64,000 nucleotides of DNA from an uncultured Desulfobacterales bacterium (lineage in GTDB: Bacteria > Desulfobacterota > Desulfobacteria > Desulfobacterales > CAJINA01): the NCBI GenBank assembly GCA_964636125.1, contig CAZWPX010000003.1, forward strand, positions 35,606 to 99,605, in the 5' to 3' direction. Positions 1 through 17,143 of the stretch are shown here, piece by piece (position 1 is the stretch's first letter; each line of letters starts with the position of its first letter). The translations under genes and the position numbers were made by a program. The notes beneath the pieces are model-generated. The model did not search any database, was not told the origin of the DNA, and was given only the letters and a program-made list of their open reading frames with translations.

Positions 1-1
1 G

Positions 2-1153
2 ATGCGAATGACCGAGAAACCGAAAAAGCGCCCCCCGACCAAATGGGTGCCCGTTGTCCGGAGCCTGACACTGCAGCAGTCAGCTTACCAGGTTGTGGTA
101 TCCGCCACCGGTACCGTCATTCCGGCCCGGCGGATAACCTTGCGTTCCCGGGTGTCAGGCCAGGTCGTTAAAATCCACCCGGAATTCAATACCGGCGGAT
201 ATATTCCCACAGGTGCCACGGTCGTGACACTCGACAAGGCCGATTACCGCCTGGCCCTGGCCCAGAAAGAAAATGACGCGGTAAACAGCGAATACGCTCT
301 CAAGGTTGAAGAGGGGCGCCAGGCGGTTGCCCGCCGGGAGTGGCAATTGCTGGGTACCAAGGCGCCTGAAAAAACGGAAGGGACCATCCTGGCCCTGAGG
401 GAACCGCACTTGAAAAAAGCACATGCAGATGTGGAAGTGGCCCGCATCCAGGTGGAAAAAGCACAACTGGACCTGGCCCGCACCCGGATCACCGCACCTT
501 TCAACGCCCTGATCATTTCCAGTAACGTCGATATCGGTTCTCAAGTATCACCCCAGGACCCGCTGGCGGAACTGGTGGGCACAGACTATTACTGGGTCCA
601 GGTATCTATACCGGTCGATCGCCTGGGCCGGATCGCCATCCCCCGGGACAGCAGTGAAAAAGGATCTTTGGCACGCATCCGCTACGCCCGGGGACACCAC
701 CTCAACGGCCGGGTCATTCGCCTGTTGGGAGACCTGGAAAGCCAGAGCCGCATGGCCCGGGTCCTGGTGGAAGTCCTTGATCCGCTGCAAAGGAAAAGCA
801 GCACCGCCAATAGCCCGCCCCTGCTCATCGGTGAGTTTGTGCGGGTCGATATTCAAGGAGAGCGTCTTGATGATGCGATGGTAATCCCGCGCACCGCCTT
901 AAGAGACCAGGGAACCGTCTGGCTGCTGAACCCGGGTATGACCCTGGACATACGCCCGGTGACTCCCGTTTGGCGGGATAAAAATACCGTGGTCATTCAA
1001 AACACGTTGACCCAGGGCGACCGTGTCATCGTGTCGGAGCTGTCCGCCCCCGTGGCCGGTATGCAATTGCGCCCGGCACCCGAACTCGCCCCATCTTCTG
1101 ATCAGGAGACTACCGAGAAAACGCAATCGCCCCATAACCCCGGTAACGAATAA
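2..1153 (+). CDS. RND efflux periplasmic adaptor (membrane fusion protein, HlyD/AcrA family); true N-terminus probably upstream of the window
   Basis: 383-aa ORF beginning at the window edge. It shows the MFP barrel-sandwich/hairpin pattern (VSATGTVIPARRITLRSRVSGQV ... LDLARTRITAPFNALI). No signal or TM segment is seen at the N-terminus. The stop lies 2 nt before the AcrB-like gene. Confidence 0.8.
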   Translation: MRMTEKPKKRPPTKWVPVVRSLTLQQSAYQVVVSATGTVIPARRITLRSRVSGQVVKIHPEFNTGGYIPTGATVVTLDKADYRLALAQKENDAVNSEYALKVEEGRQAVARREWQLLGTKAPEKTEGTILALREPHLKKAHADVEVARIQVEKAQLDLARTRITAPFNALIISSNVDIGSQVSPQDPLAELVGTDYYWVQVSIPVDRLGRIAIPRDSSEKGSLARIRYARGHHLNGRVIRLLGDLESQSRMARVLVEVLDPLQRKSSTANSPPLLIGEFVRVDIQGERLDDAMVIPRTALRDQGTVWLLNPGMTLDIRPVTPVWRDKNTVVIQNTLTQGDRVIVSELSAPVAGMQLRPAPELAPSSDQETTEKTQSPHNPGNE

Positions 1154-1155
1154 GT

Positions 1156-4100
1156 ATGCAAACAACATCCCCAGTATCTGCCCAGAGGGCCGCCGGCCCG
1201 ATTCACTGGATGGCCCATCACCCGGTCAGTGCCAACCTGCTCATGCTGGTGCTGCTGCTGGGCGGCTTTTTCTGGGGAACCCGCATCAAGCAGGAGGTCT
1301 TCCCGGATTTTGAACTCGATATGGTGACTGTCTCGGTCCCCTATCCCGGCGCGAGCCCCCAGGAGGTCGAAAGGGGTATTGTGCTGGCGGTTGAAGAGGT
1401 GGTGCAGGGCCTGGAGGGGGTGAAAAAGGTTACCTCACGGGCCAGCGAAGGCTCCGGTTCGGTGACGGTGGAAATGCTGGAAGGGGAAGACATCCAGAGG
1501 CTGGCCCAGGAAATCAAGGCGGAAGTGGACCGCATTACGACCCTGCCGGAGGAAGCGGAAGACCCGCGGGTGACCATCCTGTCCCGTAAACGCTTTGTCG
1601 TTTCCCTGGCCCTGTATGGAAACCAGAGTGAACGGGTGCTGCGAGAGTACGGGGAACGTGTGCGCGAGTCCCTGCTCCAGGATGCGCACATCTCCCAGGC
1701 CGAATTAAAATCGGTCCGCGATTATGAGATCAGCATTGAAATTCCACAAGATACTTTGCGAACCTATGGTCTCACCCTGGCTGAAGTAGCGACTCGCATC
1801 CGCCGGGCCAGTGTGGATCTGCCGGGCGGCGCTATCAAGACATCTGCCGGCGATATCCTTGTGCGCATGAAGGAGCGTCGTGATTTCGGGTATGAATTCG
1901 GACAGATACCGATCATAACCGGACTCGATGGCACCCGGGTCCTGCTGGAAGATATCGCCGATGTGCGCGATACTTTTGCTGAAACCGACTACCAGGCCAC
2001 CTACAACGGCCAGCCGGCCGTGCTGATTGAAGTCTACCGGGTGGGCGACCAGACCCCTATCACGGTGTCCAATGCCGTCAAAAAGGTGGTTGCGGATTTA
2101 AAAACCGCACTCCCGCAGGGCCTGGCCATAGACCTGCGCAACGACCGGTCCGAAATTTATCGCCAGCGCCTCAACCTGATGATAAAAAACGGTTGCCTGG
2201 GACTGGGGCTGGTCTTCATGCTGCTGGCACTTTTTCTGGAACTGCGCCTGGCTTTCTGGGTCAGCCTGGGAATTCCCATCTCATTTCTGGGTTCCCTGCT
2301 CTTTTTACCGCTGGGCGGCGTCAGCATCAACATGGTTTCCATGTTTGCCTTTATCGTCACCCTGGGTATCGTTGTCGATGATGCCATCGTGGTGGGTGAA
2401 AATGTCTACCTGAACCGGCAAAGAGGCGACCGCTGGATGACGGCCGCTGTGGACGGTGCCCGGGAAATAACCATTCCAGTTGTTTTCAGTGTCCTTACCA
2501 ATATGATTGCGTTTCTGCCCATGTTTTTCGTGCCCGGGTTCATGGGCAAGATCTTCAGCCAGATACCGGTGGTGGTGATCTGCGTTTTCACTGTTTCCCT
2601 GGTGGAGAGTCTTTTTATCCTGCCGGCCCATCTCGGGCACCAGCGCGAAAAACAGCGGGCGCTGCTGCCGCTTGTCGGGCGTCTGAAAAAGCTGCAGCAG
2701 CGGTTCAGCGTGCTGTTTATGCAGGTGATCGACAAATGGTACCGCCCGGCCCTGCGCCGTATCCTGCACTGGCGGTATCTGACCCTCGGCATCGGCCTGG
2801 CGATTTTAATTATTGCGCTGGGCTATGTCCGCAGCGGCCGCCTGGGCTTCGAACTGTTTCCCAAGGTGGAATCCGATTACGCCAGGGTGACGGCTACCTT
2901 GCCCATCGGCAGCGCATTCACTAAAACCCTGCAAATACAGGAAGTTTTGGTTAAAGAAGCGCAGAAAATTGCCAATAAAAACGGGAATGGCGCCCTCGTG
3001 GAGGGGATTTTTGCCCACATTTTCGGCAATGTCACCGAAATTCGCGTCTATCTCACACCCCCGGACAGCCGCCCCATCTCGACCTCCGCCTTTGCGGATA
3101 AGTGGCGCAGGCAGGTCGGGGTGCTGCCCGGCCTCGAATCACTGCGTTTTGAATCCGATGCAGGCGGCCCCGGACACGGTGCAGCTATTTCCATAGAACT
3201 TCAACACCAGAACATGGAAGCCCTTGAGAAGGCCGGCATGGAACTGGCCCGGGCACTCAATTTCTATCCCGGTATCCTGGACGTGGATGACGGCGTGGCG
3301 CCCGGTAAAAAGCAGATTGACTTCCAGGTCCGCCCGGAAGCGCGCAGTCTCGGGCTGCGCTCCATCGAGATCGCCCGCCAGGTGCGGCATGCTTACTATG
3401 GGGCCCAAGCCCTGCGCCAGCAGCGCGGCCGTAACGAAGTCCGGGTAATGGTCAGATTGCCGCAAGCGGAACGCGGGTCTCGGTTTTCCCTGGAGGAAAT
3501 GGTGTTGCTCACCCCCGCCGGCGGCGAAATTCTCCTGCGCAATGCAGTGGATATGACACCCGGCCGGGCTTACACCGATATCGAACGACGCAACGGTCAA
3601 CGCATCATCACGGTTACCGCGGATGTCCGGCCCCGCAAAAGGGCCGGTCAAATTCTCAATGCGGTCAAGTCTGAAGTGCTGCCTTCCCTGGTGGATAAAT
3701 ATCCCGGACTGGCCTATAGCTTTGAAGGGCGGCAGGCCGATCGGCGGGAAAGTATGCAGAGCCTGTTCATAGGCATCGGGGTGGTGCTCATCGTTATCTT
3801 TGCCATGCTGGCCATACCGCTCAACAGTTACATACAACCGGTCATTATCATGGCGGCGATTCCCTTTGGCATTGTCGGTGCGGTGATCGGACACATCATT
3901 ATGGGCTATGCCCTCAGCATCATCAGCATGTTTGGTGTGCTGGCCCTGATCGGGGTGGTCATCAATGACTCCCTGGTGCTCATCGACATGGCCAACCGCA
4001 AACGGCGCAACGGTCTTGCGCCCTACGCCGCCATTTTGCAGGCGGCCCCCCTCCGCTTTCGCCCTATTCTTTTAACCACCCTGACCACTTTCGGCGGGTT

Positions 4101-4292: not shown

Positions 4293-4351
4293 TGAACGAA
4301 GGCGGATTTCAGTAATGTCGTGGGCCAGTTTTGTACCCACGGCTTCGTTCA
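4293..4351. terminator. Candidate bidirectional terminator-like stem between convergent genes
   Basis: Outer 9-bp stem tgaacgaag (4293-4301) / cttcgttca (4343-4351). Inner 6-bp stem cgtggg (4319-4324) / cccacg (4336-4341). T-rich tracts follow on both strands. The internal loop is asymmetric, so this is weak. Confidence 0.3.
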
Positions 4352-5038
4352 GTCGCATTTTTTTAAGCAAGATATCGTCTCCGCCTGGGAATGCAAATCG
4401 GCCACCGTTTCTTCAAGCCGCTGCATATCTTCCCGGATGAATTGCTGGGTGGCTGTCGCCAGGTAGCTGAAATATGGCAGATTCGTTTCCTGGATGGTCA
4501 GACCGGCGAAAGCGTCGATCCACTGCCCCAGATGAGAATCCAGAAATTCAAGTTGGTGCCCAAGACTTGCGGCAGCTTCGTCAGAACACCCGTTGTGAAG
4601 ACAGTTCAATTCTTCTATTATGAGAACGTGCATGAATTCCAGCTCCACACTGATGTGGTCGGGTGGATTTTTGAATTCCTCGTTTACGGTCAAGCCGGCT
4701 GCTAAATAGCGTTTGATGACATCCAGGGTGCTGTCGCCCATGATTTGACGTTTATCATCCAGGTAGATGGAGCCGTAAGGCGGAGCCAGAAGCTGATACG
4801 GGCCGATAAAGAGTTTGGCGAACTGAATCTCAAGGTCGTCGACCGTAACTCTTGTGTTCAGTTCGCTGCGCATCATGACCACTTGAGAAATAGCGTTCGA
4901 CCCCGTGGCGCACAGTCCGGTTTCGAGCAGTTTCAAAATTTCACCGATACCCGTTTTCGGCAGGCTATAGCAGCTTGATAGAGAGCGATAAATTTCACTG
5001 CGGTATTTCTCGATACTCAGTATTTCGTTGTCATTCAT
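4349..5038 (-). CDS. TorD/DmsD-family redox-enzyme maturation chaperone (ArrD-like by context)
   Basis: The ATG at 5038 has GGAG about 7 nt upstream. The ORF-track start at 5140 adds 34 aa with no RBS. TorD-family pattern: EIQFAKLFIGPYQLLAPPYGSIYL ... PPDHISVELEFMHVL ... FLDSHLGQWIDAF. It is the last gene of the molybdoenzyme operon. Confidence 0.8.
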   Translation of the reverse strand: MNDNEILSIEKYRSEIYRSLSSCYSLPKTGIGEILKLLETGLCATGSNAISQVVMMRSELNTRVTVDDLEIQFAKLFIGPYQLLAPPYGSIYLDDKRQIMGDSTLDVIKRYLAAGLTVNEEFKNPPDHISVELEFMHVLIIEELNCLHNGCSDEAAASLGHQLEFLDSHLGQWIDAFAGLTIQETNLPYFSYLATATQQFIREDMQRLEETVADLHSQAETISCLKKCD

Positions 5039-5099
5039 GTAATCCACTCCATGTGTGATAAAGATTTGCCACTGTAAAGACCATCCGCTTTGAGATCTG

Positions 5100-5130
5100 C
5101 GAGGCGGCCGGGAGGTAAGCGGCCGCCTCG
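5100..5130 (-). other. Perfect 11-bp GC-rich hairpin inside the operon (between the membrane-subunit and chaperone genes)
   Basis: cgaggcggccg (5100-5110), loop ggaggtaag, cggccgcctcg (5120-5130). No U-run follows on the minus strand, so this is not a classic intrinsic terminator. It could be an mRNA processing or stability element. Confidence 0.3.
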
Positions 5131-5152
5131 CAGTTCCCATGGCCGGCAGCAG

Positions 5153-6259
5153 TTAGTCCGGCACGGCTTCCAGTTTCAGGTAGCGTTCACCAAGGCTGTA
5201 CACCAGAAGCATAACCGAGAAGCCAAACAGGGCCACGAAAACCTCGTAGACAGTCGGTAAATAGCTGACAATTTGAGGTCGGCCTTCCGCCATTTGACCG
5301 AGCGGCCGAACAACACCGCTGAGCACAAACTCCAAACGCCCGGCAAACATACCGACGAGCAGGAGCGTGCTGGCAGTCATCTTGCCCCCAATGGTAGCTC
5401 TAATCTTGGGAACCAGCATCAAGACGGTGGGCGCGACCAGGCCCAGCCAGAATTCGATATTGTAAGGGATCGAACCTATCATGTGCTTGAAGGCCTGATA
5501 TTCCACAGCAGTCGACGATATGCCACCGCTGATGGTGCGCCACAGGAACAGGACCCCGATAACTCCGGCGACAATTCCCATCAACCGGGCAAACTCATTG
5601 AACAATGCTTCTCTTTCCGTACTCAATGACTGGTTCGCTAAACGATAGTACACCATGGTGAACAAAAGCAGCGCGGCCATCCCGGAGGCAAGCCCGGTGA
5701 GTGGGAAATAGAATGAAAAGAAAGAGGCATTCAAGGCCGGTCGTGCATCCGTCATACCCAACAACCAGCCAAGGGTCGTGGATGTAAATATTGCAATTAT
5801 AAAGATCAACATCCCCAGTGTTTTGCTTATTGATCCAATGTGTATTCGCCAGAAAGCGCTGAGAAGCAGGACAAAATAAGCACCGTAAAGTATGGCCAAC
5901 CACCATAACGGTGAGGCCGGATTAGGAGAAAGTAAAATATAGACGACATTTAATGGCGCGCCGAGATGCAGAAGCAGGCAAACAAAGGAGCCGAGCAAAA
6001 CGGCAATCTCCAGATACACCGTACGTTTTTCAATCACCTCATATCGTTTTATGCCGAATACAACCGGAAAAGAAGAGACGAAGGCCAGGCCCGCACTGGT
6101 AAGGCTGAAAAAGATATAAGTCGACAGTGGCAGGGTCCAGACCAGGACATCCGTTTTGGCATACAGCGTAAACCCGTCTGAATAGACTTTAAAAGTTGTC
6201 CAAAGGCCGAGCAAAATGCCCAGGCCCAACAATCCAATCCAAAGATGATATCTTTTCAT
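5153..6259 (-). CDS. NrfD/PsrC-family integral membrane quinol-interacting subunit of the molybdoenzyme
   Basis: 368 aa, almost entirely hydrophobic with about 9-10 TM segments. Its start abuts the stop of the Fe-S subunit gene (6260). Confidence 0.8.
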   Translation of the reverse strand: MKRYHLWIGLLGLGILLGLWTTFKVYSDGFTLYAKTDVLVWTLPLSTYIFFSLTSAGLAFVSSFPVVFGIKRYEVIEKRTVYLEIAVLLGSFVCLLLHLGAPLNVVYILLSPNPASPLWWLAILYGAYFVLLLSAFWRIHIGSISKTLGMLIFIIAIFTSTTLGWLLGMTDARPALNASFFSFYFPLTGLASGMAALLLFTMVYYRLANQSLSTEREALFNEFARLMGIVAGVIGVLFLWRTISGGISSTAVEYQAFKHMIGSIPYNIEFWLGLVAPTVLMLVPKIRATIGGKMTASTLLLVGMFAGRLEFVLSGVVRPLGQMAEGRPQIVSYLPTVYEVFVALFGFSVMLLVYSLGERYLKLEAVPD

Positions 6260-6985
6260 CTATAGCCCCCCTTTCGTTCTTGGGTAACCGGCCGCGCTGA
6301 AATCTCTGATGTAATAAACCGCAGGTTCCGTCCCCACGGCCTCTTTCAGCCGAAATGGTCTGAATTTTCCCAATAATTGGTTTACCTCACTCTTCGGGTT
6401 GTCGAGGTCACCGAAGACCCTGGCATCAGCCGGGCAAGCCTCCACGCAACGTGGCAACTTGCCCAGCGCGACCCGGTGATCGCAAAAAGTGCATTTTTCC
6501 ACGACCCCGCGCGGCCGTATATCAGGCAGCGTCGCACCCCTTTCCGGATTGTAGTAGGGCGCGCCTTTACCACCGGCCTTCCGCAGTTCTTCGGCCGGTG
6601 AAACGGTTACACCTTTAATAACGGCTTTGTCCGATTTCCAGGTGGAATGCGCATCCTTCCAGTTGAAATATATCACCCCGTAAGGGCAATTGATCATGCA
6701 GTACCGGCAACCGATGCACTTGTCTGGATCATGCATTGTAATGCCGTTGCCGAGTTTATGCATCGCCCTGGTAGGGCATCCCCGGACACACGGCGCATTG
6801 TCGCAGTGGTTGCAGAGCGTCGGTATGTAGTGATACCGGACATTGGGAAAGGTTCCCGAGGTTTCCGTAATTTTGTGAGACCAGTAAACCCCCTCCGATA
6901 CGTTGTTTTCATTTCTGCATGAGATACTGCACGAGCCGCAGCCAACGCACCGTTGGAGGTCGATAACCATTGCATATCTACCCAT
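6260..6985 (-). CDS. Four-cluster 4Fe-4S ferredoxin subunit (DmsB/PsrB/ArrB type)
   Basis: 241 aa with four Cys groups: CVGCGSCSISC, CNHCDNAPC, CIGCRYCMINCP and CTFCDHR...CVEACP. Confidence 0.9.
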   Translation of the reverse strand: MGRYAMVIDLQRCVGCGSCSISCRNENNVSEGVYWSHKITETSGTFPNVRYHYIPTLCNHCDNAPCVRGCPTRAMHKLGNGITMHDPDKCIGCRYCMINCPYGVIYFNWKDAHSTWKSDKAVIKGVTVSPAEELRKAGGKGAPYYNPERGATLPDIRPRGVVEKCTFCDHRVALGKLPRCVEACPADARVFGDLDNPKSEVNQLLGKFRPFRLKEAVGTEPAVYYIRDFSAAGYPRTKGGL

Positions 6986-6996
6986 TGTTTCCCTCC

Positions 6997-9582
6997 TTAT
7001 ACTTTATCGATCTTTATCCGGGTTACGGCATAGTAAGCTGAACTGCCGCTCAAGGCTTCATACTGGGCCGGGATCAGGTCATTGCTGCTGCCGCCTCTGG
7101 CTGTTTTTCCAAATCTCTTTGAGGCCAACCGGCCGTAAGCCCAGTGGCCCTGACCGTAGCACTTGGCCACAGATCCGGGACGCACACCTTCCCAGAGCTT
7201 GGCGGTACAGACCAGACTGCCGGTTGGTGAAGAAATCTTTATGCGATCCCCGGACTGGATACCGAGCTTTGCGGCATCCACCGGATTGATCTTCGCCACG
7301 TCGTCCCAGGTTTCATCGCCCGGGTCCAGGTCTTTGAAGTCGTAATACCAGGTGCAGTTGGCAGACCGCCCTTCCCTATTTAAGCGGGATTTATGATCCA
7401 CGTGAATGAAGGGAAATTCTTTTTCGTCCCCGAGGATAAACGGCTCCTCATAGTGGGGGACAAATGCCGTTTCACCCCTGGCCAGGTAATTCGTCGCCTG
7501 CATGACGTCATCTACGGAAACGCCGTGCTTCGCGGCATGCTTTTCAAGGGCAGCCTTGAGGGTGACGCTGTAGAATTCGAACTTGCCCGTCTTGGTTTTC
7601 ATATGGCCCCAGCGTTTACGGAAGGAATAGGGTTTCGAGTTCCACACCCCCACCTTGGCGAACTCCTCCCAGCCGCTGAATTTGTCTCCGCCTTTGTATT
7701 TGGCCGGATCCCAGAGGTTCTGGGTGGCGTATTTAAGTGCGTAGAGGGCAAATTCTTTTTCATTGGTCGGTTCTTTGCCGGTCTCCGGGTCCTTGTAGGT
7801 TTTGTAATGCCGCATCAGGTTATCGAAACCGCGCTCGGCCAGTTTCTCGGCCAGCAGCCAGGGAATTTCGGTCTCGTCGATTTTGTAATCCCAGACATTC
7901 TTGACGATAGGCTGCATCAAGGTCACATGGCGGTACCCATTGCCGATGGCCTTCACATAACCCCACTTTTCGAACATGTGGTGGGTATCCGGCAGTACGA
8001 TATCGGAAAACCAGGAGAATTCCGATGCATTGGTCGTAATGTGGACGAGGAAGGGGATTTTCGACAGGGCTCTTTCCCAGCGCTCCGGCTGCGGGGCCGA
8101 AAACGAAAAATTGTTCATGTACCCAATGGCCACTTTGATCTCGTAGGGGTCTTCATTCAAAAGGCCGTCAGCGGCATTGTTGGTGATGACCCCGCTGCCC
8201 GGCTTGCCTTTTTTCAGGCAGGGAATGTGCAATCGGCCGCGCTGGTCAATTTTCTCATGCTTTTTGCCCTTCTTGGCAATCTCATCCATAAAATCATTCG
8301 GCTTGGGAAACTTCGAGGTATACTCCTTGTTAGCTTTCAAGGTGCCACCCACATTGTCCACGGCACCGACAATCCCGTTCAGGGCATGCACGGCCATGGC
8401 CGTATAGCCACCGCGCACCTGCATGCAGGGGCCGCCGCCCAGCCACGATATGGCGTGCGGGGCCGCTTGGCCGAATCCGGTCGCCACGCGGCGAATTTGT
8501 TCAGCTGGAATTCCGGTAATGGAAGCAGCCCATTCAGGGGTCTTGTCTTTCAAAGCAAGATTCCAGTAGTTGACGATTCCGTTGGTATGCTGTTCTGCGA
8601 AGGTGTCAGCATCCACTGTCTGTCCCGGGACAAACAGGTTTTTACCTTCCTTGAAATCCCCGACAAATGGTTTGTACCAGAGCCCTTCGGCGAGTATGGC
8701 GTGCGAGATCGCCACCGCCAGGGCACCATCCTGGCCCGGCTTGATCGGCAGCCATTCATCGGCCTTTCCGGCCGAGGCCGACAGGCGGGGCTCGACTATG
8801 GCAATGGTGGCCTTGTCAACCACGTCGCCCCACACCTTGGAGTAATACGAAACCTGCCGGTTGGCCGCCAGGGGGTCCGCACCCCAGAGCAGCACGTAGT
8901 GCGCATTCAAAACGTCGTATTGCCGATAGCTCCAAATGCCCTCGGTAAAGAAGGGACCGAACTTCTCCGCTTCAGCGCACAGGGAACTGTGGGAGATGTT
9001 GTTTGGTGAGCCGATAATCTTTGTCATACGATCATAAAGCACATCGCGCATGTACGAATAGCGGCCACGCATGAGCATGTACTTGTGCGTTTCGTTGTTG
9101 TTGCGCAGTTCCATGATCTTGTCGGCAATGGTATTCAGGGCCTCATCCCAGGAGATGGGGACAAACTTCGGATCTTCTTTGCGGCCTTTTTTCGGGTTGG
9201 TGCGTTTCATTGGCGTTTTAATTCGATCCGGATCATACAACTGCTGGAGGGCTAAATGCGAACGCGGACAGCCGGCTCCCATGTTTACCTTTGAATGGGG
9301 GTTGCCTCTAACTTTTACGGCCCGTCCGTCGATTACATACACCTGCTTGGAGCACCATGAGGTGCAGCCTTGACAGGTGGCCGGCATCCAGCGTCCCAAA
9401 GCACCTGTTTTCTTACCGGAATCTGCAGCCAGGGCTTTCAATTCCGGCTTTAATCCCGCACCCATAGCGACGGCTGCGCCGGTCGCCGCTGATGCCTTTA
9501 CAAAAGAACGGCGTGAAAGCTTCACGTCGTTCAGAAAACCAGCCATCACGGTTTTTGGCTTATTTCTTGATTTTTTCATCAT
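6997..9582 (-). CDS. arrA: Tat-exported bis-MGD molybdopterin oxidoreductase catalytic subunit; candidate respiratory arsenate reductase ArrA
   Basis: Probable start is the MMKKS ATG pair at 9579-9582, next to GGTGGAGG. The ORF-track start at 9627 is less likely. Twin-arginine motif SRRSFVK (9496-9516). Fe-S motif C-X2-C-X3-C-X27-C (9268-9375). The segment RGRY-X22-HSSLC-X4-K-X11-Y (8926-9069) matches, as I recall them, the ArrA-specific (R/K)GRY motif and the spacing of ArrA active-site residues. Assigning it to Arr rather than Psr/Phs/Ttr needs a phylogeny. Confidence 0.6.
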   Translation of the reverse strand: MMKKSRNKPKTVMAGFLNDVKLSRRSFVKASAATGAAVAMGAGLKPELKALAADSGKKTGALGRWMPATCQGCTSWCSKQVYVIDGRAVKVRGNPHSKVNMGAGCPRSHLALQQLYDPDRIKTPMKRTNPKKGRKEDPKFVPISWDEALNTIADKIMELRNNNETHKYMLMRGRYSYMRDVLYDRMTKIIGSPNNISHSSLCAEAEKFGPFFTEGIWSYRQYDVLNAHYVLLWGADPLAANRQVSYYSKVWGDVVDKATIAIVEPRLSASAGKADEWLPIKPGQDGALAVAISHAILAEGLWYKPFVGDFKEGKNLFVPGQTVDADTFAEQHTNGIVNYWNLALKDKTPEWAASITGIPAEQIRRVATGFGQAAPHAISWLGGGPCMQVRGGYTAMAVHALNGIVGAVDNVGGTLKANKEYTSKFPKPNDFMDEIAKKGKKHEKIDQRGRLHIPCLKKGKPGSGVITNNAADGLLNEDPYEIKVAIGYMNNFSFSAPQPERWERALSKIPFLVHITTNASEFSWFSDIVLPDTHHMFEKWGYVKAIGNGYRHVTLMQPIVKNVWDYKIDETEIPWLLAEKLAERGFDNLMRHYKTYKDPETGKEPTNEKEFALYALKYATQNLWDPAKYKGGDKFSGWEEFAKVGVWNSKPYSFRKRWGHMKTKTGKFEFYSVTLKAALEKHAAKHGVSVDDVMQATNYLARGETAFVPHYEEPFILGDEKEFPFIHVDHKSRLNREGRSANCTWYYDFKDLDPGDETWDDVAKINPVDAAKLGIQSGDRIKISSPTGSLVCTAKLWEGVRPGSVAKCYGQGHWAYGRLASKRFGKTARGGSSNDLIPAQYEALSGSSAYYAVTRIKIDKV

Positions 9583-9659
9583 TCCTCCACCTAGTAAGTT
9601 GTGACTGCTTTCTTTCCTTCTATCCATTTGACTGCAATTCTATGTGAATCGAAAAAAGG

Positions 9660-10073
9660 CTAAGCCTCATCCTTTTTTTCAGACGCCGGTGGATCTCTGG
9701 AATCGGTCTGGTTATCCCTGATGCAGCGGATCCAATAAACCATTTCCTCCGGATCGACCGGTTTATTGATACAGGCAAAAATGTAGTAGCACAGCGCCTC
9801 TTTGAGCTCAGGGTGAAAGCGCTCCCGGGAGGTGCACAGGAAGCAAACGTCCGGGTAGGCCAGGGTCAGGTTGCGAATGGTACGGTTGTCTATATCAAGA
9901 TTATCAATGTCCAATATGACAGCCAGAAAGGCGGATTTGGCCAATACCGTCTGCAGGTCGCCCATAGAGTGGCACACCCGGATCCGGTGTCCTTCGAAGC
10001 GAATCATATCAGCCAGTTTGCTGGATTCATCCCGATCCGAATTGGCTATGAGAACTTCTTGTTCGTTTTTCAC
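9660..10073 (-). CDS. Stand-alone receiver (REC, CheY-like) domain protein; first gene of the molybdoenzyme operon
   Basis: 137 aa. Receiver landmarks are present: VLIANSD (acidic pocket SD, not DD), AVILDID (candidate phospho-Asp), FLCTS (T/S) and INKP (Lys-Pro). There is no output domain. Confidence 0.7.
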   Translation of the reverse strand: MKNEQEVLIANSDRDESSKLADMIRFEGHRIRVCHSMGDLQTVLAKSAFLAVILDIDNLDIDNRTIRNLTLAYPDVCFLCTSRERFHPELKEALCYYIFACINKPVDPEEMVYWIRCIRDNQTDSRDPPASEKKDEA

Positions 10074-10143
10074 AGAATTCCAATATGTTGTCTATAAATT
10101 CAGGATTCATGCGAAACAGTCAGCCGACTTTAGCTATACCTAT

Positions 10144-10159
10144 AACAAGACGCATGCCA
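10144..10159 (-). promoter_or_regulatory. Candidate sigma54 (-24/-12) promoter for the REC-molybdoenzyme operon
   Basis: The minus strand reads TGGCATG-CGTC-TTGTT against the consensus TGGCACG-N4-TTGCW, with correct spacing. The -12 GC is GT, which weakens the call. It lies about 70 nt upstream of the REC start and downstream of a sigma54 activator gene. Confidence 0.35.
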
Positions 10160-10310
10160 GATTCATGATCGTGCCGAAATTAGGCGATCCGGGAAAACCT
10201 CATGCTACGCAACTGTTTGTATTTTTTATAATTAAAATCTTATGGCGCCTATGCCGCGCAAGCAGCCCACGGAGGAAATGGGAAACCCTGTCTTTGAAAA
10301 GCAAGGCCGG

Positions 10311-10339
10311 TTGTCCGGAATCCGGACAATGCTGTCCGG
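10311..10339. promoter_or_regulatory. Perfect 9-1-9 palindrome plus an extra half-site; candidate enhancer (UAS) for the adjacent sigma54 activator
   Basis: TTGTCCGGA-A-TCCGGACAA at 10311-10329, followed by a third TGTCCGG at 10333-10339. It sits about 150-190 bp upstream of the sigma54-like promoter, with an AT-rich stretch (10215-10245) between them. Confidence 0.45.
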
Positions 10340-10533
10340 TAGAATATAAAAAGTTATTGAATAACAAATAGATATATTCGATCGGACACTTGCGAATTGC
10401 CGCCGAGTGGCTGCGGGCAGAGACGCAGCCTCACGATGAATGCGCTGAGGGGGATCTAAACCGGAAGGGGCGGCACGGAGGCATGCATTCAATGCCGGCA
10501 AAAAGGCATTTCAGCGGACCGAAATTTCAATCC

Positions 10534-12789
10534 TCAATGCAGGGTGGGATTTTTGATGCGGTATTTTTTTAGCTTTTCATACAGGGTGCTGCGGCTGATG
10601 CCGAGTTGGGTCGCCGCGGCACTTTTGTTCCCGGAACAGGCCGCCAATGCATCCTGGATTAACTGCTCTTCATTTTCAATGATGGAAACGGGGGGTGCCG
10701 GTCGGCGATTCACAGCTGTACGGAGCTGCATCTCCCTCAGAGACAAGGGCAGATCTCCAGGCTGAACAGCGTCGGATTTTGCCAGCACGACCGCATGCTC
10801 GATACCGTTTTCAAGCTCACGCACGTTGCCGGGCCAGTGGTGGTCCAGCAGCAGGCGCATGGCCTCCTCACCGATACCGGTCAACACTTTATCCCGCTCC
10901 CGGGCAAAATGCCTGAGAAAATGGTTGGCCAGCAGGGGAATGTCGTTGCGACGTTCTCTAAGCGGTGGGATCTGAATAGGGATTACGTTGAGCCGATAGA
11001 AAAGATCCTCGCGGAAACGTCCTGACTTGACCTCGTCTTCAAGACTGCGATTCGTTGCCGCCAGAATACGCACATCGACCTCTATGGACCTTTCACCGCC
11101 CACCCGCTCAATGGTGTGATTCTGGAGTACCCGCAACAGTTTGATCTGGGCGGTGGGGGAAATGTCGCCGATTTCATCCAGAAACACCGTTCCGCCGTGC
11201 GCCTGTTCAAATCGACCGATTTTTTGCCTGGTAGCACCGGTAAAAGCACCCTTTTCATGACCGAACAATTCACTTTCCAATAGGGTGGAAGGATACGCCG
11301 AGCAATTGATCACCACGAAGGCCCCGCCGTGCCTTTCACTTGATCTATGAATGGCTTTGGCCACAAGTTCTTTACCTGTGCCGCTTTCACCCAGGATCAA
11401 CACATTGGCATCGGTTGGCGCCACATCTTCAATGAGTTGATAGACAACCTGCAGCTTGGGGTCGCGGCCAATGATGTCACCGTATGCCGACGATTCTTCC
11501 ACCCGGATCCTGAGCGAATACAGGGCCCGTTCACTTAACAGGGCGCGATTCAAGGCCCCGGCCGCCTGCTTCAGCAGGAGAGACACCATTGCCAGTTCGT
11601 TCTTGAGACAGTGGCAATTATCAGTGCAGGCCACCAGCAGGGCGCCCAGCGGCCGGTTTTCGTAGTGGTAAGGAAATACTGCCAACCGTCGGGCCGCAGT
11701 CAGTTGGCCGGGCACCGGCAGACTGGCCATTTCGTTTACCGGCAACCATCCGAATTCGCCGACCCCCTTCAGCACGCTGACGAGTTGATCGTATTCCTCC
11801 CTGTATACGGGCGGGCCGGCGCTGGCCGCAAGGTACAAAAGGGCGTGCCGTTTTTCATCCAGAACCGCGATGGTCATGTGCCGGCATTGCACGATAGAGC
11901 GAAGCGTTCTGACGATATAATCGCCGATTTCATTGAGGGTCGATAAAGCGGCGATCTTCTGTGAGAAGGTTAAAGACGCGGATATTTGCTTGTGGGCCCG
12001 GTCAAGTTCGATGTTCTTGACCTCCAGTTGATCGTTGGATTGCTCTATTCTAACCAGGTACTTTCTCAAACGCGCGAGCATGCCGTTAAACGCGCTGGTA
12101 AGCGCATTCACTTCCTCGCGGCCCTGTATGTCAAGCCGCGTGTCCACCGAATTTTCATCGATGGTGGCGACCGCCTGTTTGAGTTGGGTCAGGGGACGGA
12201 GCAGTCGACTGATGAGAATATTGGTCAGGACCAATGATAACCCAAGGATTACCAGGGTCAACAGCGTCATGTACACCCACATAGAGGCGACCTGGGCACG
12301 ATACGGGGCCTCCGCCAATCCGATTCGGAGGATACCCGCCCGGCCCTCAAAAATCGGCATTGCCACATCTATGAACCGCTCATTTTTTTCAGAAATGGTT
12401 TTGACGATTTGGCTTTGTCGGCCTTGTACGGACAGATGATTCGAGTCAATCAGGTCACCGGGAATACCATCTTTGAACGTATGCGCCAGCACCTGCTGGT
12501 CCGGTTTGACAATGAACAGGTAGGATACGGCGGCATCGCTGGCAATCTGGTCTTCAATCATTTTCTGGATGGCGACGACGTCATTGATGAGAATCAGATC
12601 AGTGAGATCAAGGGCGAGTTTTTTAGCAATGGCTTCAGCCCGCACCTGGGCGGCCTCGATTAAATTGGCACTGAATCGTTCCGTGAGGACCATTGATATC
12701 ATGAGACCCGAGCAGACTACGATGATCGTGACGGACACCAGCAAAGCATTTTTAAGACTGTCAGAGCGCACCCTACCCCTTTCCCGCAT
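10534..12789 (-). CDS. Membrane-anchored sigma54-dependent transcriptional activator (TM-periplasmic domain-TM-HAMP-GAF-AAA+-Fis HTH)
   Basis: 751 aa. Hydrophobic segments at about aa 15-35 and 169-193 flank a domain of about 130 aa. A HAMP-like region follows ([15 protein letters not shown]...[14 protein letters not shown]), then a GAF-like region. Walker A is GESGTGKE. The GAFTGA loop is at 11233-11250. The C-terminal HTH is [20 protein letters not shown]. No receiver domain is present. Confidence 0.85.
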
Positions 12790-13753
12790 TCAGCGCGGCT
12801 GACATGTCCCGAACGGGTTCGTACCAGGCATTATCAGGGGCGACAAACCGGTCTATCATCAACTCCTTGAGGATAGCCTGGCCCTTTTCGGTATTGTGCA
12901 TATAGAGAACCACACCACGGATTTGATTTTTTAAGCCTTCTGGTATGTGCGCAGACATCACCAGCGGCGGACTCCCGAAGGGGGGCGACTTTTTGATAAT
13001 CCGGGTCTGTGATGTAAAAAAGGATTTGCGGCCCTGGAAATACTCCCACTTGTGGCCATCCACGGCAGCACCATCCACCAACCCTTTGGCAACCGCCATA
13101 ATGGAATTGTCATGGCTGTAAGTGTATACGGTGCTCTTGAAAAAAGTTTCCGGGGTCTCATTGATCTCATGCAGCCAGTAAGTCGGTACCAGCGACCCCG
13201 TGTTTGAATCGGGATCGGTGAAGGCAAACATCTGCTGCCGGAGATCGGTCAAACGCTGAAAGTCGCTGTTGCGATGAACGATCAGATAAGACTGGTAATA
13301 GGGTTTGCCGCGGACTACCGGTGTGGCCACGGCTTCGAATTCATAGACATAGCGATCGGTGGCATAAGGGCCGGTGCAAACGAAGGCCATGTCAATTTTT
13401 CTGCGGGGGAAAAGTTCGTTGATCTCACCGTAGGTTTTGCGCTGAACCAACTGTATGTCGCGGTCAACCTGATCACCGATATAGGACAACAGCTCATTGT
13501 AAAATGTGATGGTTTCCTTGGGAGAAATCATCGCCGCCACCGCCACGCGTAAAGATTTACGGCCGCTAGCCGGTCCGGCAACCGTCCTTGTAGCTGTCTC
13601 TATCTTTTTTTGGGAAAAATCGACCAGCTTGTACTCACTGCCTTTTTCACAGCCTACAGCCACTATCACCAGAAGGGCCAGGCTGACAGCAATCAGTGTC
13701 TCGTTCAATCTGCTTGTTATTTTCCTGGGCACGCTCATCACCTGGGAATTCAA
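12773..13753 (-). CDS. Periplasmic PhnD-type (phosphonate/oxyanion ABC substrate-binding fold) protein, AioX-like by context
   Basis: 326 aa with an N-terminal signal or lipoprotein-like segment (LIAVSLALLVIVAVGC). PhnD-family pattern: LRVAVAAMISPKET...YGEINELFPRRKIDMAFVCTGPY...DPDSNTGSLVP. No ABC permease or ATPase is nearby. Its stop overlaps the activator start by 17 nt. Confidence 0.7.
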   Translation of the reverse strand: MNSQVMSVPRKITSRLNETLIAVSLALLVIVAVGCEKGSEYKLVDFSQKKIETATRTVAGPASGRKSLRVAVAAMISPKETITFYNELLSYIGDQVDRDIQLVQRKTYGEINELFPRRKIDMAFVCTGPYATDRYVYEFEAVATPVVRGKPYYQSYLIVHRNSDFQRLTDLRQQMFAFTDPDSNTGSLVPTYWLHEINETPETFFKSTVYTYSHDNSIMAVAKGLVDGAAVDGHKWEYFQGRKSFFTSQTRIIKKSPPFGSPPLVMSAHIPEGLKNQIRGVVLYMHNTEKGQAILKELMIDRFVAPDNAWYEPVRDMSAALNAGKG

Positions 13754-13839
13754 GGCTTTAAGTAAACGTTCTTACCGCCATACAACACAGGCAAGATGGA
13801 TTTATTCCAGACGTCATATGCCACAATGTGGTATTTCGA

Positions 13840-13868
13840 ATTATAAGGTCGCCCCACTTTCCAGTCAA
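13840..13868 (-). promoter_or_regulatory. Strong sigma70-type promoter for the binding-protein/activator gene pair
   Basis: The minus strand reads TTGACT (13863-13868), a 17-nt spacer, then TATAAT (13840-13845), about 85 nt upstream of the 13753 start. Confidence 0.55.
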
Positions 13869-13909
13869 GCAAATAGTTCTTTCGCACCTGACAGGTAAAA
13901 ATACCGGCC

Positions 13910-14375
13910 CTACAGCAAAATAGGCATCATGCTGTTGACCTCTTCGATAACCTGTTTTCCTGCTTCATTTTTTGAACATGCCACACTACCTGTCATGTAG
14001 GTTTCGTCCTCTATGGGAATCAACGCTATCTTATCAGCATACCCCAGTTTTTCTGCATCATAGATCGTAGAACTAAGAGAAAGAAAATAATCACCACGAC
14101 GATTCAACAGCATTTTCAATGCCTGCCGGCCGAGTTCATCCGTATATAAATAGGATATATTGTCTAACCCTGAATGCGGATATGGCAAGGTTAATAATAT
14201 CAAAGCCGAAACCTGTCGGATCTTTTTCATTTTCCAGAATGAACATGGGCGGATATGTAAAATAGGCCCAGGTAACGACGTTCCCTGCATAGCCTAAAGC
14301 TGCGAAACAGCCAGACCACAGAAGTGAAAGTAGGAGGTAAGTACCCACACCTTTCTTGAAATTCTTGGCATTCAT
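13910..14375 (-). pseudogene. Frameshifted and shortened family-3 solute-binding protein remnant
   Basis: ORF 14136-14375 encodes a signal peptide plus VVTWAYFTYPPMFILENEKDPTGFGFDIINLA. The homology appears to continue in another frame (ORF 13910-14290: DNISYLYTDELGRQALKMLLNRRGDYF...). The combined length of about 155 aa is well below the roughly 250 aa usual for this fold. Confidence 0.4.
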
Positions 14376-14498: not shown

Positions 14499-15875
14499 TC
14501 ATAGGACCCGCTGGCCGGGATCACAGCTCCCGATACTATCCCGGACAGTTTCGGCGATCTCCTGGCAATACGCAGCAGTCACCTGTTCATCCGGACCTTC
14601 CACCATCACCCGGCAAACCGGCTGGGTTCCGGAATACCTTACCAGTACCCTGCCCTGGTCACCCAGACGGGCTTCAACGTCTGCAATTGCCCGGGCAACA
14701 TCCGTTAATGATTCCAATTCCGGTTTAGCGGTTACCTCAACGGCCAGCAATTCCTGGGGATATACCTGCATCACCCCGGCAAGTTCTGAAAAGGTCTTGG
14801 CCTGCCGCTGCATGGCAGCCAGTACCTTCAGGGCTGACAAAATGCCGTCACCGGTTGAATGCTGATCCCGGAAAATCATGTGCCCTGAGTTTTCACCGCC
14901 GATCACAGCACTGTCCTCAACCATTTTTTCCATGACATATCGGTCACCTACATCGGATACTGAATGTATAACGTCATGTTGTTCCAGGGTCCTGACCAGA
15001 CCGATATTACTCATGACTGTGGTGACTACCCGGTTGTTGTCCAGACGGCCGGCCTGTTTATAATCGATTGCGCAGATAGCGATGAGCTGGTCACCTGAAA
15101 TTTCCCGGCCCGTCTCATCCACAGCGATCAGCCGGTCGGCATCGCCGTCAAAAGCCAGCCCGACAGCTGCGTTTTTTTGGCAAAGGGCCTGAACCAGTCC
15201 ACCGGTATGTTCCGATCCACAGCCAGCATTGATATTGGTTCCGTCCGGGGCGGCGTTGAGAACGGTCAAGTCGGCGCCCAGACGTTTGAACACCACCGGG
15301 GCAATCTCAGAGGCTGCGCCGTGGGCGCAGTCAATGACCACCGGCAGGTCTTTGAGAAGGTCGGGCACGGCCGCGCATTTGCATAGAAAATCGATATAGG
15401 TCCTGCCAGCCTCCGGAAGCGGGGCTACCCGGCCGGTCTTTCGCGGCCCCTCTTTCTCCGGCGATCCTGCGAGTTGGGCAATCCGGTGTTCAATGTCGGC
15501 TTCGACGCTTTCAGAAAGCTTGCGACCGGCGTGGTTGAAAACCTTGATTCCGTTGTCATACCAGGGATTATGCGAGGCCGACACGACAATTCCCACAGCA
15601 GATGGGTCCTGTTTTGCCAGGTACGCAATAGCCGGCGTGGGTACGACACCCGCTTTCAACACATCCAGGCCGGCTGCGCAGACACCGGCGGCGATTGCTT
15701 CCGCAAACATGTCCCCGGATATGCGGGTGTCCTGACCGATGATCACCTTGCTGCAGCGCTGCTGTTCGCCGAAATACTCGGCCACCGCCCGGCCCACGTG
15801 CAGGGCGGTGGCACCTGTCATGGGGGGCGTATTGGCCAACCCCCTGATACCATCGGTTCCAAAAAGTTTTTTCAT
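14499..15875 (-). CDS. glmM: Phosphoglucosamine mutase
   Basis: 458 aa. MKKLFGTDGIRG at the N-terminus, the active-site loop SASHNPWYDNGIK and FDGDADR motifs. Confidence 0.95.
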   Translation of the reverse strand: MKKLFGTDGIRGLANTPPMTGATALHVGRAVAEYFGEQQRCSKVIIGQDTRISGDMFAEAIAAGVCAAGLDVLKAGVVPTPAIAYLAKQDPSAVGIVVSASHNPWYDNGIKVFNHAGRKLSESVEADIEHRIAQLAGSPEKEGPRKTGRVAPLPEAGRTYIDFLCKCAAVPDLLKDLPVVIDCAHGAASEIAPVVFKRLGADLTVLNAAPDGTNINAGCGSEHTGGLVQALCQKNAAVGLAFDGDADRLIAVDETGREISGDQLIAICAIDYKQAGRLDNNRVVTTVMSNIGLVRTLEQHDVIHSVSDVGDRYVMEKMVEDSAVIGGENSGHMIFRDQHSTGDGILSALKVLAAMQRQAKTFSELAGVMQVYPQELLAVEVTAKPELESLTDVARAIADVEARLGDQGRVLVRYSGTQPVCRVMVEGPDEQVTAAYCQEIAETVRDSIGSCDPGQRVL

Positions 15876-15886
15876 TGAATAGACAC

Positions 15887-17143
15887 CTATTGTAATGCGG
15901 GCAAATGGCTCATAACATCCGCGCTGATCTGGTTGACAATCGACTGGAGCCAGTCGCTGCCGGCTTCGCGTTCATTTGATTCCAGGCCCTGGATCACTGT
16001 CAGGTAATGATTACCCCGGGTTTTAATTGCAAGCTGGATGGATTCCAGGAAACACTCCTGCAAATCGTTGTCCCCGGTTATTTCCAATCCGCCCTGCAGG
16101 GCTAATTCCACGTCCCCCCAACGGTCGTATAAAGCTTGTTGCTGCCCCGCCGCCCCGCCGCCCCGCGCGGATGTCTCGCCATCAGCCAGCAGTTCTATGG
16201 AAGACGGCATTTTCATTGCAAACGCCTTGAATTGCTTTACGCGTTCGTGCAGCGCCAAATCAAGGGTATCATTTAAACCTGCGGCCAGTTCTGTCGGGTA
16301 GCGGTCAGAGATAAATTGCGATCGTACCTGGCGGTACCACTGCCGGAGAGCAAAAAGATTGGCTATGTAGCGGACATTGTGGCCCACAACGCGCTTGATT
16401 CCCAGGTATGTACCCGGCGAAAATGGGATTCTGGCCGAACGGGCCGCCCCTTCGACAATCAGACGCCCGGGCCGGGATTCATCTTTACGGCAGATAGAGC
16501 CGGCCGCAACGATGGTACCGTAGGTCAAATGGCAGGGGCCCACCAGCCCCCCCTGCCCGCCCAGGAAGATCGGGCGGCGATCCAGCATGACGCCCCGGGA
16601 TACATCCCCGAGTAAGGATGCCGTGGCTTTGTCCTGGTTCGGGGTATAATTGAAATGAATATAGGAACTGCCCACCTCACTGTGGTCTTTCACGGACGTG
16701 CCGCCAGCCATGAAAATGTCACAGAAGTTAATCAGGCTGCCCAGCGTCACCCAGGGAAAGAGGATCGTCTGTTTCAAACCCACGGTATGGGCGCAACGGG
16801 CCTGTTCCTCGAAAATGGTGCCGGCCCGGACATGGGCCCCGGAACCACAACTGGCCCCCTCCAGGAATACGGCCCCCGAGAAATAACCACCCTTAAGCGC
16901 CACATCCGGACCCACGCAGCAATCTTCGATGGTCACGGGCGCTTCCCGGCCCAGGCGAACGCCTTCCAGAATGATCGTTTTCGCCCCATAAATTCGGCAG
17001 CCGGGATAAAGTACAACGGCGTTGCCCGAAATTTTGTCCGGGTCCACCTCTGCACCGATATCAATGCTGGCCGGATTTGATATGGCAACCCCTTTTTCCA
17101 ACAGGAGCCTGATTTTTTCTGCACTTGATTGGGACATGGGCAA
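15887..17143 (-). CDS. Left-handed beta-helix (hexapeptide-repeat) acyltransferase resembling the GlmU C-terminal domain, with an extra C-terminal helical region of about 170 aa
   Basis: 418 aa. The N-terminal two-thirds is rich in hexapeptide repeats (GVAISNPASIDIGAEV..., GNAVVLYPGCRIYG...). No nucleotidyltransferase domain is present. It lies directly upstream of glmM. Confidence 0.55.
   Translation of the reverse strand: MPMSQSSAEKIRLLLEKGVAISNPASIDIGAEVDPDKISGNAVVLYPGCRIYGAKTIILEGVRLGREAPVTIEDCCVGPDVALKGGYFSGAVFLEGASCGSGAHVRAGTIFEEQARCAHTVGLKQTILFPWVTLGSLINFCDIFMAGGTSVKDHSEVGSSYIHFNYTPNQDKATASLLGDVSRGVMLDRRPIFLGGQGGLVGPCHLTYGTIVAAGSICRKDESRPGRLIVEGAARSARIPFSPGTYLGIKRVVGHNVRYIANLFALRQWYRQVRSQFISDRYPTELAAGLNDTLDLALHERVKQFKAFAMKMPSSIELLADGETSARGGGAAGQQQALYDRWGDVELALQGGLEITGDNDLQECFLESIQLAIKTRGNHYLTVIQGLESNEREAGSDWLQSIVNQISADVMSHLPALQ

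Follow-up and report, generated by a model that had tools for sequence, protein, structure and literature searches.

The closest described counterparts of the locus reported here are the respiratory arsenate reductase (Arr) of Shewanella sp. ANA-3, whose catalytic subunit ArrA has been crystallised (PDB 6CZ7-6CZA; Glasser et al. 2018), the Arx enzymes, which form the sister clade of Arr, and the regulatory systems arrXSR, aioXSR and arxXSR. The locus lies in a 64-kb stretch of DNA from an uncultured Desulfobacterales bacterium; this whole stretch is referred to below as the window. Homology, sequence motifs, clade membership, predicted fold, operon composition and synteny make it very probable that the gene at 6997-9579 (minus strand) is arrA. 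Its product would be the catalytic subunit of ArrABC, a dissimilatory arsenate reductase that is anchored in the membrane and faces the periplasm, and ArrD would be the chaperone of this enzyme. The substrate, the direction of the reaction in vivo, the quinone and the signalling path we infer.

Shewanella ArrA is exported through the twin-arginine translocation (Tat) pathway and arrB lies next to its gene, as in the locus described here. The Shewanella operon, which we take to consist of arrAB only, differs in that the operon in the window also has an NrfD-type arrC, a TorD-type arrD and an ArrX/σ54 module. Shewanella uses the cytochrome CymA for quinol oxidation. It belongs to the Gammaproteobacteria, whereas the genomes related to this locus are from the Desulfobacterota.

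Like this locus, Arx clusters have their genes in the order A-B-C-D and encode a sensor of the PhnD type as well as an activator of the σ54 type. ArxA has the same H-S-x-x-C segment with the Mo ligand, but its equivalent of Lys198 is not a lysine. Unlike the present locus, they possess an extra gene, arxB2, upstream of arxA, and their sensor acts via a histidine kinase and a response regulator. Two such clusters, recovered by tblastn of plasmids, provide the ArxA references: one on pSCD of Sulfuricella denitrificans skB26, an organism whose ArxA is the subject of discussion in PMC6549141, and one on pORIO3 of Cereibacter azotoformans. Both consist of genes for a PhnD-type binding protein, a HAMP histidine kinase, a σ54-type or response regulator and the 4Fe-4S protein ArxB2, followed by A, B, C (NrfD) and D (TorD). 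No ArrA was found by this plasmid search, which returned the two arx clusters and Salmonella phsABC instead. In the XSR systems a PhnD-family binding protein is encoded beside the regulator of the operon, as is the case here (Badilla et al. 2018, PMC5908839), and the σ54-dependent output is shared with Aio and Arx.

The arrA gene and its active-site residues

By homology, the product of the gene at 6997-9579 is the catalytic subunit of a respiratory arsenate reductase, carrying Mo-bis(pyranopterin guanine dinucleotide) and a [4Fe-4S] cluster. Its open reading frame (ORF) reaches an upstream ATG at 9627 (6997-9627), which would give a protein of 876 amino acids (aa). Translation probably starts at 9579 and yields 860 aa, because the ribosome-binding site GGTGGAGG directly precedes the ATG at 9579 (second ATG pair) and most homologues among the matches listed are about 860 aa long. 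An initial annotation of this DNA, which described a catalytic subunit with ArrA-type signatures, had given the same size and had proposed a Tat signal. The signal is present as SRRSFVK and is recognised by PF10518 (25 bits) and TIGR01409 (24.9 bits), both over their cut-offs. The Pfam domains of the protein are Molybdop_Fe4S4, Molybdopterin and Molydop_binding, as in the Mo-bisPGD fold of the DMSO reductase family.

The named residues, numbered here in the 860-aa product (Shewanella ANA-3 ArrA number plus 8), lie within 8926-9375 on the minus strand. This is the range singled out by the initial annotation, and it begins exactly with the codon of Cys69 (9373-9375), takes in RGRY and HSSLC and ends with that of Tyr218 (8926-8928). 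A regular-expression search finds the claimed Fe-S motif, C-X2-C-X3-C-X27-C, at residue 69, where CQGCTSWC is followed by 27 residues and a cysteine; the four cysteines, C69, C72, C76 and C104, align with Cys61, Cys64, Cys68 and Cys96 of Shewanella ArrA. The claimed (R/K)GRY motif is R171-G172-R173-Y174, within the local sequence LMRGRYSY. Further active-site residues are H197, S198, C201, K206 and Y218, in the pattern H-S-x-x-C-x4-K-x11-Y.

The residue list published for PDB 6CZ7 comprises Cys61/64/68/96, Tyr166, His189, Tyr210, Ser190 and Lys198 (PMC10654088). The offsets between these positions are the same in both proteins: 23 from Y to H (Y166/H189 in Shewanella), 5 from C to K (C193/K198) and 12 from K to Y (K198/Y210). 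R173 and Y174 thus correspond to Arg165 and Tyr166, H197 and S198 to His189 and Ser190, C201 to Cys193, K206 to Lys198 and Y218 to Tyr210. The initial annotation had given this spacing and these residues. Its offsets are identical to those found and five of its residues (Tyr166, His189, Ser190, Lys198 and Tyr210) are in the published list, whereas Arg165 as an active-site residue and Cys193 as the Mo ligand are assumed here together with the alignment. On this basis C201 is the predicted Mo ligand. In sum, the Fe-S motif, the Mo-ligand cysteine and the arsenate-binding residues of Shewanella ArrA recur here at the same offsets, and all named residues are invariant across 21 relatives. A chance match to the motifs was rejected because they sit in a full-length homologous alignment with E = 0 and are invariant in those relatives.

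A second ORF of 538 aa (7393-9009, plus strand) is antisense to the conserved frame of arrA. It is taken to be an artefact of the frame opposite a conserved gene and no real gene.

Phylogeny, motif distribution and predicted fold

Aligned by BLASTP with Shewanella ANA-3 ArrA (6cz7), the protein is 59% identical, with 76% positives (1165 bits, E = 0). The 806 columns of the alignment contain 3 gaps, none of them in the active-site stretch. The sequence of the Shewanella chain was transcribed from the BLAST alignment to 6cz7. Among NCBIfam models the best match is the ArrA model NF041714, at 1326 bits over model positions 2-848 of 848; PhsA follows with 248 bits.

An exhaustive HMMER search of 1.84 billion cluster representatives returned 150 matches, and the 108 full-length ones were aligned with the references and with the ArrA homologues of ten named genomes. 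A neighbour-joining tree was calculated from 69 sequences and 773 trimmed columns, including the crystallised ArrA, the two ArxA, Salmonella PhsA and 54 full-length cluster representatives. It places the protein inside an Arr clade with a bootstrap support of 99/100; an inner core with Shewanella ArrA is supported at 79/100, and a separate Arx clade at 100/100. In the trimmed alignment the protein shares 60% identity with Shewanella ArrA, 33-34% with ArxA and 23% with PhsA.

In a motif census over 123 aligned sequences, the complete set of (R/K)GRY, H-S-x-x-C, K and Y is confined to the Arr clade. Deviants in or near that clade are P0123 and P0139, which differ at the Lys or Tyr column, and P0129 and P0130, which have KGRS and H-D..C; P0142, in the extended Arx group, carries GGRY. 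A passage of PMC6549141, citing Glasser 2018, gives (R/K)GRY as the mark of ArrA and XGRGWG as the mark of ArxA. The initial annotation drew the same line between (R/K)GRY and a GRGWG-type motif, and it is borne out by the references, since both ArxA proteins carry YGRGWG. The ArxA-like P0154 has FGRGWG, and PhsA has neither motif.

The AlphaFold (AF2) model used was built from 57 diverse sequences and has a predicted local distance difference test score (pLDDT) of 93 and a predicted template modelling score (pTM) of 0.89; it covers the fold of the protein chain. An earlier run on 21 close homologues reached a pLDDT of 44 and was discarded. A Foldseek search of the PDB with the model returns 6cz7_C first, with template modelling (TM) scores of 0.92 (query-normalised) and 0.98 (target-normalised) and a root-mean-square deviation (rmsd) of 1.3 Å over 807 columns. 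The runner-up is the polysulfide reductase PsrA of Thermus (TM 0.69/0.80, rmsd 5.0 Å).

Alignment, phylogeny and structure had been suggested as checks in the initial annotation, and each one that could be run favoured ArrA. The annotation had also allowed that the protein might fall outside the Arr/Arx clade, or that its motif might occur in Psr/Phs enzymes as well. The tree and the PhsA sequence point the other way on both counts.

The arrABCD operon

Genes arrA, arrB, arrC and arrD, all four lying head to tail on the minus strand, make up a complete operon. The product of arrB (6260-6985, 241 aa) is the Fe-S electron-transfer subunit, with 16 cysteines in four cluster-binding groups. Its best NCBIfam match is the ArrB model NF041715 (336 bits), followed by DsrO (191 bits), and it is 57-90% identical in syntenic relatives. 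The product of arrC (5153-6259, minus strand, 368 aa) is an integral membrane anchor of the NrfD/PsrC type (Pfam PF03916 NrfD, 63 bits). A hydropathy scan reveals multiple hydrophobic segments of the transmembrane type, and the gene is syntenic in most relatives. The fourth gene, arrD (4349-5140, minus strand), is an ORF of 263 aa, whose true start may be an internal methionine, Met35, at about 5038. It encodes a Tat-proofreading and cofactor-insertion chaperone of the TorD/DmsD family (PF02613, 108 bits; NCBIfam TorD/DmsD).

The gene ahead of arrA is a 137-aa ORF whose product is not an Fe-S protein; no arxB2-like gene is found there.

Two arrangements were observed among related loci. The ArrC proteins of close relatives (loci L004-L083) are of two types, either 56-92% or 33-47% identical to the ArrC described here. 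Across the same loci ArrA stays 70-89% and ArrB 57-90% identical, and the coexistence of two ArrC types with steady ArrA and ArrB identity suggests that the membrane anchor has been exchanged within the arr cassette. In metagenome-assembled genomes (MAGs) of Omnitrophota, Planctomycetota and Brocadiaceae (loci L064, L070, L073-L075, L078 and L081), gene order and anchoring differ although ArrA is 70-73% identical: arrA is preceded by the arrB homologue, and no homologue of ArrC was detected nearby.

The regulatory module

The gene farthest upstream in the module, the arrX-like gene (12773-13753, minus strand), encodes a periplasmic oxyanion-binding protein of the PhnD family. Its N-terminal hydrophobic segment ends in AVGC, which is read as a putative lipobox. 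Against the PDB the protein matches ArrX of Chrysiogenes arsenatis (6x6b) at 200 bits, AioX at 150 bits and PhnD/PtxB at no more than 55 bits, and it is 42% identical to ArrX compared with 34-37% to two ArxX proteins. For ArrX, a dissociation constant of about 1 µM for arsenate and no binding of arsenite have been reported (PMC5908839). By this similarity the ArrX-like protein is a probable arsenate sensor.

The arrX-like gene overlaps the next gene (10534-12789, minus strand) by 17 nt. The latter encodes a σ54 activator of 751 aa, in which Pfam and hydrophobicity indicate a transmembrane segment (11-40), a periplasmic sCache_3_2 domain, a second transmembrane segment (165-198), HAMP, a weak GAF-like region, an AAA+ domain of the σ54-interaction type and HTH_8. 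Its AAA+/HTH part and ArxR of Sulfuricella share 44% identity, and the gene is syntenic in about 50 loci. No kinase or receiver domain of Pfam was found in the activator, nor any similarity to ArxS beyond chance.

Between the activator gene and the 137-aa ORF (9660-10073, minus strand) is an intergenic region of 460 bp. It contains a putative σ54 (-24/-12) promoter, TGGCATGCGTCTTGT, at 10145-10159 on the minus strand, 86 nt upstream of the 137-aa ORF, which is the first gene behind it. Of 56 related loci, 44 have a site of the TGGCAY-N5-TTGC type between -61 and -115, a raw pattern count uncorrected for chance. An inverted repeat lies some 165-180 bp upstream of this promoter, CCGGACA-GCAT-TGTCCGG, with a third CCGGACA half-site (10312-10339, minus strand). 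It is a candidate binding site of the activator, on weak evidence, because only the closest relative, L004, clearly shows a comparable group of sites and the sequence is not kept more widely.

The 137-aa ORF itself has receiver-like and FleQ-like matches in Pfam that are below cut-off (FleQ, E = 0.005; Response_reg, E = 0.014). Its position is kept in 56 related loci, and its product is possibly a modulator of the activator.

No histidine kinase is encoded in the regulatory module (9660-13753), in which the sole regulator is the protein with transmembrane, Cache, HAMP, AAA+ and HTH parts. This sets the module apart from the XSR systems: the kinase is absent, the activator has no receiver domain, one membrane protein joins Cache sensor, HAMP, AAA+ and DNA-binding parts, and a separate receiver-like ORF heads the operon. 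We suggest tentatively that the XSR phosphorelay has been replaced here, in that ArrX might signal directly to the membrane-bound σ54 activator without a kinase and the receiver-like 137-aa protein might act as a feedback modulator; we regard this scheme as possible rather than probable. No description of a kinase-less variant of arsenate sensing was found in the searchable literature, and nothing specific came up for σ54 activators that are membrane-bound and contain HAMP. On ArrX, the literature search returned only Badilla et al. 2018 and a paper on an archaeal element. The kinase-less module is the only non-routine feature of the arr locus.

Just upstream of the arrX-like gene, at 13840-13868 on the minus strand, is a near-consensus σ70-type promoter (TTGACT, 17 nt, TATAAT; 11 of 12 matches). 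Shuffled sequence contains at least as many σ70-type sites overall as the region does. The site could drive constitutive expression of the sensor and the activator.

Proposed mechanism

We propose the following scheme. ArrD would hold the apo-enzyme during insertion of the Mo-bis(pyranopterin guanine dinucleotide) and the Fe-S clusters, and the folded ArrAB dimer would then be exported via Tat by means of the SRRSFVK signal. At the membrane, menaquinol would be oxidised by the NrfD-type anchor ArrC, the presumed site of this reaction. By way of the four Fe-S clusters of ArrB, electrons would reach the [4Fe-4S] cluster of ArrA (Cys69/72/76/104) and then the Mo ligated by Cys201, where arsenate, held by Arg173, Tyr174, His197, Ser198, Lys206 and Tyr218, would be reduced to arsenite. 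Arsenate probably induces expression, with the ArrX-like protein acting on the membrane-bound σ54 activator and this in turn on the σ54 promoter ahead of the operon.

Weighing of the assignment and alternative functions

Several points weigh against reading the gene as arrA. The tree was calculated by neighbour joining with bootstraps only, and Shewanella ArrA is the sole named ArrA in it; none is named from Chrysiogenes, Bacillus or Alkaliphilus. The NCBIfam scores miss the curated cut-offs, which are 1600 bits for NF041714 (1326 bits for the ArrA protein) and 450 bits for NF041715 (336 bits for the arrB product). No biochemically or physiologically characterised member was identified in the subclade of at least 70% identity. 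The preference of the sensor for ArrX over ArxX is modest (197 versus 140-155 bits), and binding-pocket residues alone are reported not to set ligand specificity (PMC5908839). Catalysis in both directions has been reported for Arr and Arx enzymes (PMC7327174), and therefore the sequence alone cannot fix the direction in vivo.

Because the score of the protein is below 1600 bits, NF041714 was calibrated on known ArrA and ArxA. Shewanella ArrA scores 1710 bits, the two ArxA references score 431 and 438 bits, and other representatives of the Arr clade 667-1178 bits; the ArxA references together with the ArxA-like P0154 span 425-438 bits. The protein described here lies far closer to ArrA than to anything else. 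We read NF041714 as a narrow, Shewanella-centred model, whose cut-off is an annotation threshold and no biological definition of ArrA.

The alternative that fares best is a paralogue within the Arr clade that reduces another oxyanion, such as antimonate or selenate. A role in antimonate respiration has been suggested for Arr-like enzymes, the subclade is uncharacterised and scores under the equivalog cut-off of NCBIfam, and variant active sites occur in the wider Arr clade (the KGRS and H-D..C of P0129 and P0130). Yet every arsenate-contacting residue of Shewanella is identical here and invariant across the subclade, the fold matches at an rmsd of 1.3 Å, and the co-located sensor is ArrX-like, so that we consider a different oxyanion substrate improbable.

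Less probable still is an ArxA-type enzyme, which in vivo would oxidise arsenite anaerobically and deliver the electrons to the quinone pool. Arx is the sister of Arr and has the gene order, PhnD-type sensor and σ54 activator in common with this locus, and the AAA+/HTH part of the activator resembles ArxR of Sulfuricella. Against this, the protein is 59% identical to ArrA and 33-34% to the two ArxA, it has RGRY and no XGRGWG, and the Arx clade (100/100) excludes it. There is no arxB2 ahead of arrA, a position occupied by a 4Fe-4S gene in both arx reference clusters, the best match of the sensor is the arsenate-binding ArrX, and the related genomes are named as sulfate-reducer lineages. Sulfate reducers use low-potential menaquinone, which is suited to arsenate reduction.

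A polysulfide, thiosulfate or tetrathionate reductase of the PsrA/PhsA/TtrA type would be conceivable in a sulfur-cycling deltaproteobacterium. Such enzymes have the same A-B-C layout with an NrfD anchor, and PhsA is the second-best NCBIfam family and PsrA the second-best structure. This reading is refuted as far as sequence and structure reach and has a negligible probability, given 23% identity to Salmonella PhsA, a PhsA score of 248 bits (cut-off 694) against 1326 bits for ArrA, a PsrA match at TM 0.69 and 5.0 Å against 0.92/0.98 and 1.3 Å for ArrA, and a PhsA that has neither RGRY nor the K and Y residues.

Distribution and genomic setting

The protein, assigned as ArrA, appears to be an ordinary, previously unnamed copy in a Desulfosarcina-like sulfate reducer. 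The closest genomes are a Desulfosarcina MAG and the Delta4 and Delta3 symbionts of Olavius algarvensis, with ArrA identities of 87-89%; no public sequence was found above 89% identity. The cultured carriers Desulfoluna limicola and D. spongiiphila have ArrA proteins that are 72-74% identical, and homologues of about 70% identity are found in MAGs of Anaerolineae, Omnitrophota, Planctomycetota, Brocadiaceae, SAR324, Saprospiraceae and Methanoperedenaceae. Synteny of the whole cassette (arrX, activator, small ORF, arrABCD) extends over about 50 genomes of Desulfobacterales. The cassette is the same in Desulfobacterales and Desulfosarcinaceae MAGs, the two Olavius symbionts and Desulfoluna (ArrA 72-89% identical), whereas the flanking genes differ from those in the window.

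Earlier work described arrA from marine Desulfobacterota MAGs (PMC10060404) and Arr/Arx-group genes from Methanoperedenaceae (PMC7327174). The complete arr cassette is also present in the MAGs of the Delta4 (L004) and Delta3 (L006) symbionts, which are sulfate-reducing bacteria of a gutless marine worm. No paper was found that ties the Olavius algarvensis symbionts to arsenate respiration. As a secondary reading, arsenate respiration may occur in marine sulfate reducers of the Desulfosarcina group, the symbionts of gutless worms among them.

In public records the relatives are named 'molybdopterin-dependent oxidoreductase' or 'anaerobic selenocysteine-containing dehydrogenase', probably because the NCBIfam cut-offs for ArrA (1600) and ArrB (450) exclude a large clade. 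The clade masked by these generic names includes Desulfobacterales, Anaerolineae, Omnitrophota, Planctomycetota, SAR324, Methanoperedenaceae and the Olavius symbionts. Gene surveys of arsenic mobilisation in marine and aquifer sediments that rely on names would undercount arsenate respirers. The present analysis adds a confident assignment of a respiratory arsenate reductase for a Desulfosarcina-like sulfate reducer and leaves the understanding of ArrA function unchanged.

The ORFs scanned in the rest of the 64-kb window are housekeeping genes; arsC, acr3 and arsR are not among them. The neighbours of the cassette, an RND efflux pump and glmM, are not syntenic with it in any relative. The G+C content of the cassette (4300-14300) is about 0.49-0.56, compared with 0.58-0.59 in the flanks (1-4000 and 15000-17000). 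The lower G+C content and the non-syntenic neighbours are consistent with horizontal acquisition of the arr cassette as a unit.

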